From Candidatus Omnitrophota bacterium (GTDB lineage: Bacteria; Omnitrophota; Gorgyraeia; Gorgyraeales; Gorgyraeaceae): 58,722 bases of DNA. How positions within the stretch are numbered: the first letter of the stretch is position 1; every line of letters starts with the position of its first letter. The position numbers were made by a program, and so were the translations under genes. The stretch covers positions 94,277 through 152,998 of the forward strand of contig DNHS01000011.1 of the NCBI GenBank assembly GCA_003485765.1, read 5' to 3'. Of the stretch, positions 14,353 through 17,275 are shown one piece after another. The notes beneath the pieces were generated by a model, which saw only the letters and a list, made by a program, of their open reading frames with translations, searched no databases and was not told the DNA's origin.

Positions 14353-15372
14353 ATGGTTTTTAGAAAAATAGTTTTTTTATTCTGCGTACCTTTTTCTTTT
14401 TTATATTTTTTTATAATAACTCTGCGTAATGTTTTCTATGCCTTTAATATTTTTCGAAAACATAAAATTAACGCAAAGGTTATAAGCGTTGGGAATATTA
14501 CATGGGGAGGGACAGGGAAGACGCCTGTGGCTGCATTTATTGCAGATATTCTTGCCAAGAAAAATCACAGAGTAAGTATTTTGATAAGAGGATACGGGAA
14601 TGATGAGTCAGAGCTTCTCCCAAAATTAACTTCAAATGTACCTGTCTTGGTTGGAAAAGACAGAGTTGCAAGAGGCTTGGAAGCCATAGAGAGCAATCTT
14701 TCGGATACTATTTTATTGGATGACGGATTTCAGTACGTCCGGTTGAGAAGAGATTTGGATATAGTATGTGTAGATGCTGTGAAACCTTTTGGGAATGGCT
14801 GTGTGATACCAGCAGGGATATTACGCGAAGGCCTTAGTTCGCTTAAAAGGGCAGATATATTTTTAATCACAAAGGCGGATTTAGTTTCCAGCAAAGATAA
14901 ATTGGAAAAGCTGGAAAGGAAATTAAGATTCATAAATCCAGGAGCCATTATTGCAAAAGCCATACATAGGCCGTTATATTTTTATAGGCTTTCAAATGAG
15001 GAAAAGGTGAATATAGGGGAACTACAGAATAAAGAGTTTGCGCTGGTTTCAGCAATCGGCAGCCCAGAATGCTTTGAAAAGACAGTCCTGCGTCTGGGAT
15101 TAAAGATTAATAAACATTTTATTTTCAGAGATCATCATATGTATAAAAAAGAAGACTTGGACAGGATAAATGATTATTGCAGAAAGAATAACATAGATAC
15201 AGTTATTAGTACCGAGAAGGATGCGGTGAAGCTGCAGAGAGTGGAGGGTATAGGGCATAGAGCAGAGAGCAAAGAGCAAAGGGTGAAATATTTGGTATTA
15301 AAAGTGAGGCTGGAGATAATTGAAAATGAAGATGGATTTTATAATAGACTTTTTGGGATTTATAGCAGTTAA
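14353..15372 (+). CDS. lpxK: Tetraacyldisaccharide 4'-kinase
   Basis: SVGNITWGGTGKTP, RGYG, LLDDGFQY, GILRE, FRDHH, TEKDAVKL. Confidence 0.95.
   Translation: MVFRKIVFLFCVPFSFLYFFIITLRNVFYAFNIFRKHKINAKVISVGNITWGGTGKTPVAAFIADILAKKNHRVSILIRGYGNDESELLPKLTSNVPVLVGKDRVARGLEAIESNLSDTILLDDGFQYVRLRRDLDIVCVDAVKPFGNGCVIPAGILREGLSSLKRADIFLITKADLVSSKDKLEKLERKLRFINPGAIIAKAIHRPLYFYRLSNEEKVNIGELQNKEFALVSAIGSPECFEKTVLRLGLKINKHFIFRDHHMYKKEDLDRINDYCRKNNIDTVISTEKDAVKLQRVEGIGHRAESKEQRVKYLVLKVRLEIIENEDGFYNRLFGIYSS
15236..15284 (+). repeat. Heptamer tandem tract, 7 degenerate units, in frame inside lpxK
   Basis: agagagt|ggagggt|atagggc|atagagc|agagagc|aaagagc|aaagggt, directly after TEKDAVKL. Confidence 0.8.
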
Positions 15373-17275
15373 ATCCTTCAGTATTTTTTTATGGCGCATC
15401 CCGCTGAGGCCTAGCTTGTGGATGGGAAGGCGTATGGGGGATATTGTATATCACGCCAATTTGAAACGGAGGATGATTGCGTACGCTAATTTAAAAGCAG
15501 CGTTTCCTGAAAAATCTTCCAGGGATCTCAAAAGGATAAACAGGGCTCATTTTGAAAATTTAGGTATGAACGTAATAGAGTTATTGAAACTGCCTTTTAT
15601 GGCCAAGGATTATCTGAGGCGCCATGTAAAACTTGAAAACGCAGATGCTGTTAAACTCAGCCTGGAACAAGGAAAAGGCGTAATAGTTCTTACTGCTCAT
15701 TTCGGGAACTGGGAGATAGCATCTCTCGTTGCAAGTTTAAATGGTTATACCATGTCTGTATTTGCGCGCGAGCAGAAGTATGAAAGATTAAATAATCTCC
15801 TGAACCAATTCAGGCAGTCAACAGGCTGCAAGGTTATAACAAAGGGTTTTTCAATAAAAGACATAATCAGAACTTTGAATAATAACGGCATAGTTGCCAT
15901 GCTCTCTGATCAGGATGCAGGCGCAAACGGCGTATTTGTAAATTTCTTCAACAGGCCTGCTTCAACTGCCAAGGGCATAATAGCTTTTGGTTCAAAGACA
16001 GGCGCAAAGATTCTTCCTTCATTTATCTGGAGAGTCGGGGTTGATAAACATATAGCCAGGGCGGGGGATCCGTTTAGGCTTGTAAGTACAGGAGATAAAG
16101 AAAAGGATGTAAAAGTTAATCTTCAAATGATAGCGGATATCCTGGAAGATTATATAAGGAAATTTCCTGAACAATGGCTATGGGCTCATAAGAGATGGAA
16201 AAGCACGCCTCAGCGAAGCGTATTGATTCTGGCAGACGGGAAAGCAGGCCATCTTAATCAGGCAATAGGAGTGGCAGAAATGGTTGAGGATGCCCTAGGC
16301 TCAAGGCTTAAGGCTCGAGCCATAGAGGAGAAACCTATTGTTAAAATCCAAGTTATAGATGTGAAATTTAAAAATAAATTCATGAAGATAATTTTAAACC
16401 TTTCCAGCGTTTTTGCTTCCAGAAGATGCCAGGGGTGCTTGAGATGCCTTAAATTCTGCCTGACAAAAAAATCCTTTGAGGCTGTAAAAAATAAATATGC
16501 GGATATTATTATTTCTTGCGGGGCTTCTACTGTTCCGGCGAATATATTTTTAAAATACGAGAACAACGCAAAGAATGTTGTAATAATGAAGCCAGGACTT
16601 GCTCGCAGTAAGAAGATAGATTTAATTATTCTTCCGCGCCATGATGTGTTACGACCAACGAAAAATATATTAATCATAGAAGGGGCGCCGAATAGAATCC
16701 GAGTTACGAACGCCGGAGGACGAGCTACGAACAATGGGATAGGTTTGCTGATAGGCGGGGATGCTAAAGGATTTCAACTGAATAAAGGATGGGTTGAAAA
16801 AGTGGTAGATGCGCTTATAAAGATTAGTGAAGAGAAAGATCTCGATATATTTGTTTCTACATCCAGAAGGACTTCGCTTGAAGTAGATAGATTATTAAAA
16901 GAAAAATTGAGCGATAATAAGCGCTGCAAATTACTTATTATCGCAAATGAAAAAAATATAGATGGCGCTGTAGCTAATATATTTGGGTTAAGCGATATTA
17001 TAATAATCTCTCCGGAGAGTATGTCTATGATCTCGGAAGCTGCGAGTTCTGGGAAGCATGTTGTAGTATTCAGGGAGCGCCAGAGCGCCAGAGCGCCAGA
17101 GCGCCAGACTAAGTATGAAAAGCTTGTTGCTAATTTTGAAAAAGAAGGTTATATAAAAACGGCAGCTCCTGACGAGATTTATAATAAGATAAAAGAAATA
17201 TTGGAGACAAGGCCAGAGGTTAAGAGGCTGGATGATAGAGAGAAAATAGTAGAAAGACTAAAAGGGTTAATCTAG
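15326..17275 (+). CDS. Fusion: LpxL/HtrB-type lipid A acyltransferase + ELM1-like (Mito_fiss_Elm1, GT-B-like) domain
   Basis: N-half AHFGNWE, SDQDAG, PEQWLWAHKRWK; C-half LADGKAGHLNQ, IILPRHD, GAPNRI, LLIGG, STSRRT, SMSMISEAASSGK; start could be 15320, 15326 or 15332. Confidence 0.82.
   Translation: MKMDFIIDFLGFIAVKSFSIFLWRIPLRPSLWMGRRMGDIVYHANLKRRMIAYANLKAAFPEKSSRDLKRINRAHFENLGMNVIELLKLPFMAKDYLRRHVKLENADAVKLSLEQGKGVIVLTAHFGNWEIASLVASLNGYTMSVFAREQKYERLNNLLNQFRQSTGCKVITKGFSIKDIIRTLNNNGIVAMLSDQDAGANGVFVNFFNRPASTAKGIIAFGSKTGAKILPSFIWRVGVDKHIARAGDPFRLVSTGDKEKDVKVNLQMIADILEDYIRKFPEQWLWAHKRWKSTPQRSVLILADGKAGHLNQAIGVAEMVEDALGSRLKARAIEEKPIVKIQVIDVKFKNKFMKIILNLSSVFASRRCQGCLRCLKFCLTKKSFEAVKNKYADIIISCGASTVPANIFLKYENNAKNVVIMKPGLARSKKIDLIILPRHDVLRPTKNILIIEGAPNRIRVTNAGGRATNNGIGLLIGGDAKGFQLNKGWVEKVVDALIKISEEKDLDIFVSTSRRTSLEVDRLLKEKLSDNKRCKLLIIANEKNIDGAVANIFGLSDIIIISPESMSMISEAASSGKHVVVFRERQSARAPERQTKYEKLVANFEKEGYIKTAAPDEIYNKIKEILETRPEVKRLDDREKIVERLKGLI
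16699..16733 (+). repeat. Degenerate heptamer tract (5 units, ACGA-type) in frame in the ELM1 domain
   Basis: ccgagtt|acgaacg|ccggagg|acgagct|acgaaca; shares acgaacg with the waaA tract. Confidence 0.55.
17074..17105 (+). repeat. Octamer tandem repeat (AGAGCGCC)x3 plus one imperfect unit, in frame
   Basis: ggagcgcc|agagcgcc|agagcgcc|agagcgcc = ERQSARAPERQ. Confidence 0.85.

Follow-up and report, generated by a model that had tools for sequence, protein, structure and literature searches.

An LpxL-ELM1 fusion protein of the Omnitrophota as a probable acyltransferase-glycosyltransferase of lipid A assembly with an optional cysteine triad

The analysis of a 58,722-nucleotide stretch of an Omnitrophota contig, hereafter the window, provides insights into an unusual fused protein of the LPS pathway. 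We consider it likely that this protein is a bifunctional, membrane-anchored enzyme of cytoplasmic LPS assembly, in which an LpxL-type acyltransferase is joined to a GT-B glycosyltransferase of the ELM1/KdoT type, and that the cysteine triad in its second half is of a non-ferredoxin kind and dispensable. The fusion is genuine and not an assembly artefact: of 201 Omnitrophota genomes, 196 contain PF06258, the Pfam family of the second half, and with few exceptions the frame that encodes it is ~650 aa long; the sequence-only reading of the window had allowed for a fusion unique to this assembly, which can now be set aside. What is new about the protein is the fused arrangement of otherwise known enzymes, and the fusion, although real, is largely explained.

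The fused ORF spans 15320..17275 on the + strand, as do all features given below on that strand, and encodes 651 aa from a TTG start codon. Its first ~50 nt are shared with the 3' end of lpxK, and the N-termini of homologues are compatible with a start at either in-frame ATG (15326 or 15332). Pfam matches and homologues alike identify the whole ORF as an LpxL-type acyltransferase followed by an ELM1/KdoT-like GT-B domain. As first read from the letters, a complete LpxL domain runs without a stop into an ELM1 domain, and a search with both profiles found each of them far above its cut-off: PF03279 (Lip_A_acyltrans) matches aa 27-294 with an E-value of 1.1e-53 and 182.8 bits (gathering cut-off 22.3), while PF06258 (Mito_fiss_Elm1) matches aa 309-642 with an E-value of 2.3e-45 and 155.5 bits (gathering cut-off 27), covering model positions 1-295 of 304 and scoring 157.3 bits in the genome search. 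The C-terminal half therefore does hit the ELM1 family. Almost no linker separates the two domains, as the junction HKRWKSTPQR (aa 290-299; 16187..16216), which is nearly invariant in homologues, has no flexible segment, and the AF2 model of the full-length protein reaches a pLDDT of 88.5 and a pTM of 0.86. More than 100 fused homologues were found, down to 43% identity. A split form with overlapping lpxL and ELM1 genes also exists, and 6 loci have an alternative fusion of the ELM1 domain with LpxK, which arose once on the tree.

The N-terminal half (aa 1-296; 15320..16207) is a late acyltransferase domain of the LpxL/LpxM type by PF03279 and by Foldseek, which matched it to PatA (5f2z, E 4e-15, TM 0.85) and LpxM (5kn7, E 1.5e-13); both the LPLAT-type fold and PF03279 membership are thus present. 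It begins with a hydrophobic helix (aa 5-24; 15332..15391; FIIDFLGFIAVKSFSIFLWRI), evident from the AF2 secondary structure and the sequence, which is likely to act as the membrane anchor. The HX4E catalytic dyad motif appears as HFGNWE (H127, E132; 15698..15715), with H127, G129, W131 and E132 invariant among 45 homologues. All 17 matches to curated NCBIfam LpxL/LpxM equivalogs fell below their cut-offs, the best being NF006270 with 176 vs 248 bits. The second, unfused LpxL that had been noted at 46832 is likewise present (46832..47743; PF03279, E 5.5e-59). It carries the HFGNWE motif, shares 36% identity with the fused domain and is followed by lptC/lptA-like and lptB genes.

The C-terminal half (aa 300-651; 16217..17272) belongs to the ELM1/GtrOC1/KdoT family by PF06258, by its domain model and by its PDB matches. 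Its predicted structure is a GT-B fold with two Rossmann-like halves and a C-terminal helix that crosses back, as the sequence-only reading had suggested as a possibility. The AF2 model of the domain alone has a pLDDT of 93.6 and a pTM of 0.90, and Foldseek gave 229 PDB matches at E<=1e-3, of which the best 50 of 229 are all GT-B enzymes. Single-sequence and profile searches found no relative of solved structure, and profile-profile comparison of the domain with the KdtA, GT4, GT9, LpxK and LpxL families of the operon yielded no meaningful relation (best probability 36%). The domain keeps SRRT and the other motifs of the KdoT family. Following the first strand is DGKAGHLNQ (16235..16261), in which D306, H311, N313 and Q314 are invariant or nearly so and which, from the spacing of the motifs, would be the counterpart of D8 and H13 of KdoT. 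The RHD motif (16637..16645) contains H441 and D442, which are invariant in the homologue alignment and correspond to H109 and D110 of KdoT (PMC12856342). The SRRT hallmark of the family (S515, R516, R517, T518; 16862..16873) is invariant in 45 of 45 sequences and occurs in stand-alone forms and canonical ELM1 proteins as well; in alignments of 48 and 21 sequences, the serine and the arginines are invariant or nearly so and the threonine is nearly invariant. Also conserved is SPESMSMISEA (17009..17041), a helix motif on the donor side, in the C-terminal Rossmann half, with S567, S569, M570, S572 and E573 invariant in the homologue alignment; a pattern of this type, used as a search key, retrieved 555 relatives. 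Further downstream, a perfect octamer repeat (GAGCGCCA, 4.2 copies; 17075..17108) encodes what the sequence and model place as a disordered surface loop. A role of this repeat as a phase-variation switch was rejected, since contigs of four metagenomes showed zero length variants.

Bacterial ELM1-like proteins had been taken to have no settled biochemical function, a view that is now outdated. [quoted passage not shown] In 2025, KdoT was characterized in vitro as a CMP-Kdo:Kdo2-lipid IVA Kdo transferase with a GT-B fold and the invariant SRRT, which attaches KdoIII to O5 of KdoI and requires R180 for activity (PMC12856342). Earlier still, ELM1-family genes in LOS outer-core loci had been named glycosyltransferases in 2014 (PMC4172580), and by position and Pfam family KdoT is probably the gene called gtrOC1 there. 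Knock-down of gtrOC1 clusters with that of lpt and LOS genes. The proposal that the fusion ties ELM1-like proteins to the lipid A/Kdo core was accordingly right, but it had already been published, as KdoT acts on Kdo2-lipid IVA.

The surroundings of the fused gene point in the same direction. It is the third gene of an operon with the fixed order kdtA, lpxK, lpxL-ELM1, GT4-GT9, GT4 and deacetylase, which is conserved in ~70 of 80 species loci. In the window, domain searches place kdtA/waaA (Kdo transferase, GT30) first at 12988..14289 and lpxK (lipid A 4'-kinase) at 14353..15372; downstream are a 696-aa GT4-GT9 fusion (17299..19389), which follows the ELM1 domain whichever form the operon takes, and a second GT4 glycosyltransferase with a polysaccharide deacetylase (19391..21312). 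The same cluster is annotated with kdsB, pyrG and kdsA for CMP-Kdo supply (27304..30482). The kdtA-lpxK-lpxL linkage and the presence of kdsA/kdsB fit a reading with CMP-Kdo and Kdo2-lipid IVA as substrates. Another candidate role, that of ELM1 as a substitute for LpxB, was rejected, since the genome encodes a full LpxB elsewhere (328 bits).

Based upon these features, a sequence of events can be proposed. The LpxL half, through its HX4E dyad, would equip Kdo2-lipid IVA with a secondary acyl chain. The ELM1 half, as an inverting GT-B enzyme whose C-terminal Rossmann half (SRRT, SxSMxSEA) holds the activated sugar, would glycosylate the Kdo region of the same lipid, most probably with CMP-Kdo as the donor by analogy with KdoT, and the downstream GT4-GT9 and GT4 enzymes would then extend the product. 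We infer both the acceptor position and the order of the two reactions in the fused enzyme. If both halves act on the WaaA product, this would account for the fusion as well as for the fixed order kdtA, lpxK, lpxL-ELM1, GT4-GT9. In heptose-containing cores, O5 of KdoI is the position of heptose; the regiochemistry or the donor may therefore differ from those of KdoT, because the cluster contains four GT9 (heptosyltransferase-type) domains and an HldE-like kinase.

This last point leads to the foremost alternative, namely that the ELM1 domain glycosylates Kdo-lipid A with a first-branch sugar other than Kdo, such as a hexose or a hexuronic acid, with the lpxL-linked clade forming a distinct PF06258 subfamily. 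We regard this as possible, though the balance tips against it. The Omnitrophota clade is indeed divergent, with 23% identity to a canonical PF06258 protein and 157 vs 326 bits, the GT9 domains hint at heptose on O5 of KdoI, and NDP-sugar enzymes, some of them TviB/TviC-like, are numerous in the cluster. Several ELM1-family paralogues also reside in the outer-core loci of A. baumannii (PMC4172580), where they presumably use other sugars. However, CMP-Kdo is the donor of the sole biochemically characterized member, whose Rickettsia homologue complements (PMC12856342), SRRT, the proposed holder of the Kdo carboxylate, is invariant here, and the domain is tightly linked to kdtA, lpxK and lpxL rather than to outer-core genes. 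CMP-Kdo thus remains the preferred donor. Sequence searches for the Acinetobacter and Rickettsia KdoT proteins recovered only Omnitrophota-type or canonical proteobacterial ELM1 proteins, and a plasmid search gave no match.

The feature that had drawn most attention to the ELM1 half is the motif CQGCLRCLKFC, which lies exactly where it was first reported, at 16427-16459, and comprises C370, C373, C376 and C380. The protein has 7 Cys among 651 residues, for which four within 11 residues have a chance of ~3.5e-4 and the exact CxxCxxCxxxC spacing one of ~5e-6. On inspection, the motif falls into two parts. The CxxCxxC triad (CQGCLRC; C370, C373, C376; 16427..16447) behaves as a unit with all-or-none co-occurrence, all three Cys being found in 51 proteins and none in 61, whereas one is found in 20 and two in only 3. 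The "fourth" Cys, C380 (16457..16459), is uncorrelated with the triad, as 18 of 51 triad holders possess it and so do 13 of 61 proteins lacking all three; in genome loci, the count is 15 of 46. It is followed by L381, which is invariant in a 45-sequence alignment, where no Pro occurs at that position. The four Cys are therefore not conserved together, and the motif as a whole is optional within the family.

The location and history of the triad are informative as well. It sits in a ~28-residue insertion (aa ~358-386; 16391..16477) in the beta2-beta3 connection of the acceptor-side domain. An alignment with 40 canonical ELM1 (PF06258) proteins, and a pairwise one with a single canonical protein, show that these lack the insertion; its Cys are absent from the 40 as well. 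The triad also appears to be absent from A. baumannii KdoT, because KdoT is ~34 residues shorter between H13 and H109. The family tree shows at least 14 gains or losses of the triad, with Y, F or W where it is missing. It is not an interface specific to the LpxL fusion, a role that was rejected since the triad also occurs in LpxK-fused and stand-alone forms. No alignment column beyond the triad itself contains a remote Cys or His that co-varies with it. C400 and C536 are conserved independently of the triad and were rejected as a fourth ligand, since in many triad holders A, T, G, V or N stands in their place, and both Cys persist in triad-less proteins.

These observations do not support the ferredoxin-type [4Fe-4S] reading that had been proposed for the motif: the fourth Cys is not conserved with the others, Leu rather than Pro follows it, no distant Cys takes its place, and the motif belongs to a lineage-specific insertion and was gained or lost many times. 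Judging by the alignments, CQGCLRCLKFC is not a ferredoxin-type iron-sulfur site and is best described as an optional, lineage-specific extra. Could the three Cys nevertheless bind an iron-sulfur cluster with a non-Cys or exchangeable fourth ligand, as a switch that senses iron or redox state? In its favour, ligands one to three of a ferredoxin-type cluster are spaced as CxxCxxC, the three Cys come and go together, the insertion region carrying them is confidently ordered in AF2 models, and the Omnitrophota in the data set come from groundwater, which would suggest an anoxic habitat. Even so, we find such a switch rather unlikely in view of the uncorrelated C380 and the lack of a co-varying remote partner, the invariant L381, the at least 14 losses or gains with aromatic replacements, the absence of the triad from canonical members and apparently from KdoT, and a Pfam search at E<=0.01 that matched PF03279 and PF06258 only and no Fer4-type profile. 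Most likely, the triad serves a structural purpose that the protein can do without, and it may bind a metal (Zn or Fe-S). A more elaborate version of the idea, which we hold to be quite improbable, would have the triad on the acceptor/membrane side bind Zn or a three-Cys Fe-S centre that gates acceptor binding, with a rigid LpxL-KdoT unit acylating and glycosylating one bound Kdo2-lipid IVA without release. If the metal-centre reading were true, inner-core glycosylation of lipid A would be coupled to iron or redox status in half of the Omnitrophota.

Two further readings deny the ELM1 half its role as a glycosyltransferase, and both strike us as very improbable. A non-catalytic adaptor or scaffold, which would hold LpxL in position or bring in the downstream glycosyltransferases, would recall plant ELM1, a recruitment factor for dynamin-related proteins (PMC10936431), and KdoT and GnaT are mutually dependent in vivo (PMC12856342), but purified KdoT alone transfers Kdo in vitro (PMC12856342) and the donor-side motifs are all invariant here despite long divergence. 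A nucleotide-sugar 2-epimerase-like enzyme supplying a modified donor, in keeping with the best Foldseek matches (UDP-GlcNAc 2-epimerases, E ~1e-8) and with older BLAST and COG-style annotations, is countered by TM-scores of only ~0.5 that GT1 and GT28 transferases equal, by the rejection of that annotation as incorrect in 2014 (PMC4172580), by the transferase activity of KdoT, and by a lipid acceptor being the better fit to a fusion with membrane-bound lipid A enzymes.

With the bifunctional acyltransferase-glycosyltransferase as the preferred reading, several implications follow. Neither the LpxL-ELM1 fusion nor the Cys triad overturns current knowledge. Rather, a fusion in an unrelated, uncultured phylum supports the Acinetobacter result in placing "ELM1-like" proteins at the Kdo-lipid A stage, with a substrate in common with LpxL, and it suggests that "split" Kdo transfer, by WaaA and a KdoT-type enzyme, is widespread beyond Acinetobacter and Rickettsia. 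The fused protein is also a naturally membrane-tethered, single-polypeptide form of KdoT, which would be useful for structural work, and the optional triad poses a small, testable question on metal sites in GT-B enzymes.

Several known systems can be compared with the protein. The N-terminal half shares its fold, HX4E dyad and N-terminal membrane helix with LpxL/LpxM (A. baumannii LpxM, 5KN7) and mycobacterial PatA (5F2Z), and with LpxL/LpxM also, as the operon implies, the dependence on a Kdo-lipid context; it differs from them in its C-terminal GT-B domain, its sub-cut-off equivalog scores and the free paralogue in the same genome. The resemblance to the ferredoxin motif CxxCxxCxxxCP is limited to the spacing of the four Cys, which this one protein and those closest to it share exactly; the fourth Cys lacks a Pro behind it, a second group of Cys is missing, no Fer4 profile matches, and the motif is optional. 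Plant ELM1 and the canonical ELM1 proteins of Alpha- and Gammaproteobacteria belong to the same Pfam family and have xNQ, PxHD, GG, SRRT and SxSMISE in common with the window protein, although the canonical proteins are stand-alone, ~320 aa in length, free of the insertion and its Cys, and have M or L at the position of H311, while plant ELM1 is described as an adaptor and not an enzyme. The closest functional parallel, drawn through shared motifs and the published description, is A. baumannii KdoT, whose core locus continues with the same kinds of genes, GT4 and polysaccharide deacetylase (PMC10936431). Unlike KdoT, the Omnitrophota domain has LpxL as its fusion partner (LpxK in a sister clade), carries the ~28-residue insertion with the CxxCxxC triad, and resides in a heptose-type, GT9-rich core cluster.

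The fused protein is a genuine and ancient joining of two known enzyme types on one substrate, and the functional link that it suggests has already been established experimentally. A single uninterrupted ORF (15320..17275, + strand) encodes 651 aa from a TTG start overlapping the end of lpxK, and in-frame ATGs at 15326 and 15332 agree with the N-termini of homologues. As the sequence-only reading had proposed, both domains lie in one gene, and each is full-length in Pfam: PF03279 (Lip_A_acyltrans) at aa 27-294 (E 1.1e-53) and PF06258 (Mito_fiss_Elm1) at aa 309-642 (E 2.3e-45), meeting without a linker at a nearly invariant junction, HKRWKSTPQR. 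The full-length model (pTM 0.86) suggests that the two halves would be held in a fixed arrangement. The N-half opens with a hydrophobic helix (aa 5-24), retains an HX4E dyad (H127 and E132, both invariant), and superposes on PatA (5f2z; TM 0.85 on the target) as well as on A. baumannii LpxM (5kn7); it scores under the cut-off of every curated LpxL/LpxM equivalog. The second, unfused LpxL noted earlier is also real (46832..47743; 36% identity to the fused LpxL domain), and it is immediately followed by a single 283-aa ORF containing LptC and LptA/LptD_N-type domains (47704-48555) and then by LptB.

The source organism is a groundwater Omnitrophota bacterium whose genome carries a single PF06258 copy. 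Of the 201 Omnitrophota genomes sampled, 196 have this domain, almost always within an open frame of ~650 aa, and more than 100 database proteins contain both domains at identities down to 43%; the fusion is thus phylum-wide and old. The order kdtA, lpxK, lpxL-ELM1, GT4-GT9 fusion, GT4, polysaccharide deacetylase recurs in ~70 of 80 species-level loci. In six loci (L006, L072, L075, L079, L085 and L086), the ELM1 domain is instead fused to LpxK (~710 aa) and the LpxL domain is absent, an arrangement that arose once according to the ELM1 domain tree and that retains all four motif cysteines in 4/6 cases. The lpxL and ELM1 genes are separate in at least two loci; in L007, the locus inspected closely, they overlap by 4 nt. 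In every operon variant, the GT4-GT9 gene directly follows the ELM1 domain. The window copy of this gene (17299-19389; 696 aa) ends in a Cys-rich tail, CSPCYKSKCKRNIC, and the same succession is found in a MAG labelled Deltaproteobacteria, the locus of which is otherwise Omnitrophota-like. One Omnitrophota genome, G132, encodes besides the fused type an unfused PF06258 protein of the canonical kind (331 aa, 326 bits; contig C39, L088:7497-8489); its gene adjoins those for a GT4 enzyme and two 2OG-Fe(II) oxygenases, and its relatives are mainly from Alpha- and Gammaproteobacteria.

The suggestion that the ELM1 half is a GT-B enzyme is borne out by a high-confidence model with a GT-B fold (pLDDT 93.6). 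The closest PDB matches, which are to UDP-GlcNAc 2-epimerases and to GT1/GT28 transferases, reach a TM-score of just ~0.5; sequence and profile searches detected no related solved structure, and profile-profile comparison of the ELM1 domain with the GT30, GT4 and GT9 families of the operon returned nothing. A role in place of LpxB is ruled out, as LpxB is encoded elsewhere in the genome. The sequence-only reading held that bacterial ELM1-like proteins lack a settled function, which is out of date, while its inferred role in lipid A/Kdo-core glycosylation is correct and had previously been shown by experiment (PMC10936431, PMC12856342). The Mito_fiss_Elm1 proteins GtrOC1, 14, 19 and 22 were placed in GT-B clan CL0113, with GtrOC1, present in all outer-core loci, proposed to make the first linkage past the inner core (Kenyon et al. 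2014, PMC4172580). A mutant of the A. baumannii "ELM1-like" gene 2903 halts at Kdo2-lipid A, and 2903 together with LpsB adds KdoIII and GlcNAcA, an activity also shown in E. coli WBB06 (VanOtterloo et al. 2024, PMC10936431). The protein has since been purified and named KdoT; it links KdoIII to O5 of KdoI and contains an invariant SRRT motif in which the second Arg is needed, and homologues, among them one from Rickettsia, are able to complement (VanOtterloo, Voss and Trent 2025, PMC12856342). In a CRISPRi screen, gtrOC1 was tied to lpt and LOS genes.

A lesser question concerns the sequence CQGCLRCLKFC, located exactly as reported at 16427-16459 (aa 370-380). For a protein of 651 residues containing 7 Cys, the chance of finding four of them inside 11 residues is ~3.5e-4. 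The motif is well kept among close relatives (at least 43% identity: C370 in 44/45, C373 in 42/45, C376 in 43/45, C380 in 38/45), but this does not extend to the family at large. C370, C373 and C376 form a unit in a set of 135 representatives taken at the 50% cluster level (all three in 51, none in 61, one in 20, two in 3), whereas C380 is uncorrelated with this triad (18/51 triad holders; 13/61 proteins having none of the three). Nor does any further Cys or His column co-vary with the triad. C400, within the ISCG motif common to canonical ELM1, and C536 are ruled out as partners, being replaced in many triad holders and conserved irrespective of the triad. In one-genome-per-species loci, the triad occurs in 46/79, 15 of which also have C380, and it is found in LpxL-fused, LpxK-fused and stand-alone forms. 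Proteins without it have Y, F, W or R at the Cys positions and retain the flanking xQGx[LM]xx[LM][KR]xxL; a maximum-likelihood tree built without the Cys-motif columns requires at least 14 changes of state among 79 sequences. Alignment with 40 canonical ELM1 proteins places the triad inside a ~28-residue insertion between beta2 and beta3, in the N-terminal half of the domain; this segment is missing from the canonical proteins, where the region contains one Cys at most. The triad is thus real and co-selected, yet appears to be dispensable for the enzyme. Its simplest reading is a structural metal site or other stabilizing element replaceable by aromatic packing. The ferredoxin-type four-Cys site originally envisaged fails the defining features: besides the behavior of C380 and the lack of co-varying Cys/His, residue 381 is Leu rather than Pro and Pfam finds no Fer4 match in the fused protein. 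A three-Cys Fe-S cluster, to which an all-or-none CxxCxxC might otherwise point, seems improbable. In PimA, MurG and other GT-B enzymes that act on lipids, the alpha2 region contacts the membrane; if the analogy applies here, the insertion may lie on the acceptor/membrane side, which we regard as a lead.

Several of these genes also contain short repeats. Within the ELM1/KdoT-like domain, an octamer repeated perfectly in tandem (GAGCGCCA x4.2; 17075-17108) encodes a disordered loop, RERQSARAPERQ (pLDDT<50 at aa 589-591). Since its period is not a multiple of 3, gain or loss of one unit would alter the reading frame. The repeat had the same length in contigs of four groundwater metagenomes, each from a different study, and one of the four differed by just two substitutions. 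Heptamer repeats (ACGAACG x7.6; GCAAAGA x3.9) are translated within three consecutive LPS genes, at 13876-13928 in kdtA, 15255-15281 in lpxK and 16699-16733 in the ELM1 inter-domain linker (aa 459-472, pLDDT ~50). The linker is made up of RRTTNN/RATNN/DERRTT-like peptides both here and, with its length varying, in many related Omnitrophota proteins.

When compared by published residue positions, every motif discussed for KdoT is present in the window protein. In DGKAGHLNQ, D306 and H311 are five residues apart, as are D8 and H13 in KdoT; H441-D442 corresponds to H109-D110, and S515-R516-R517-T518 is the invariant SRRT. The H13-H109 interval of KdoT is ~34 residues shorter than H311-H441, implying that KdoT also lacks the insertion. 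The same motifs occur in an unfused, canonical PF06258 protein. Kdo2-lipid IVA is the common substrate of KdoT and LpxL, which offers a straightforward reason for the LpxL-ELM1 fusion, a reading also favored by the LpxK fusion variant and by linkage to kdtA. The ELM1 half is therefore very probably a glycosyltransferase acting on Kdo-lipid A. That it transfers Kdo itself is a proposition to which we give an even chance or slightly less, in view of the following. Relative to canonical PF06258 proteins, the Omnitrophota clade has diverged (23% identity; 157 vs 326 bits), and Acinetobacter ELM1-family paralogues probably use other donors. In addition, heptose-type cores carry heptose at O5 of KdoI, the position used by KdoT, and the window cluster encodes four GT9 domains. 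Upstream, at 5624-7874, a TviB/WecC-like NDP-sugar dehydrogenase gene precedes a TviC-like epimerase gene, both products scoring below curated cut-offs; this pair could provide a UDP-HexNAc-uronic acid donor, recalling the GlcNAcA added after KdoIII in A. baumannii, although the parallel is only suggestive. The gene order invites the same comparison, as a GT4 enzyme directly follows the ELM1 gene here just as LpsB/GnaT follows KdoT in the A. baumannii pathway, and the polysaccharide deacetylase of the window cluster parallels the A. baumannii locus (PMC10936431).
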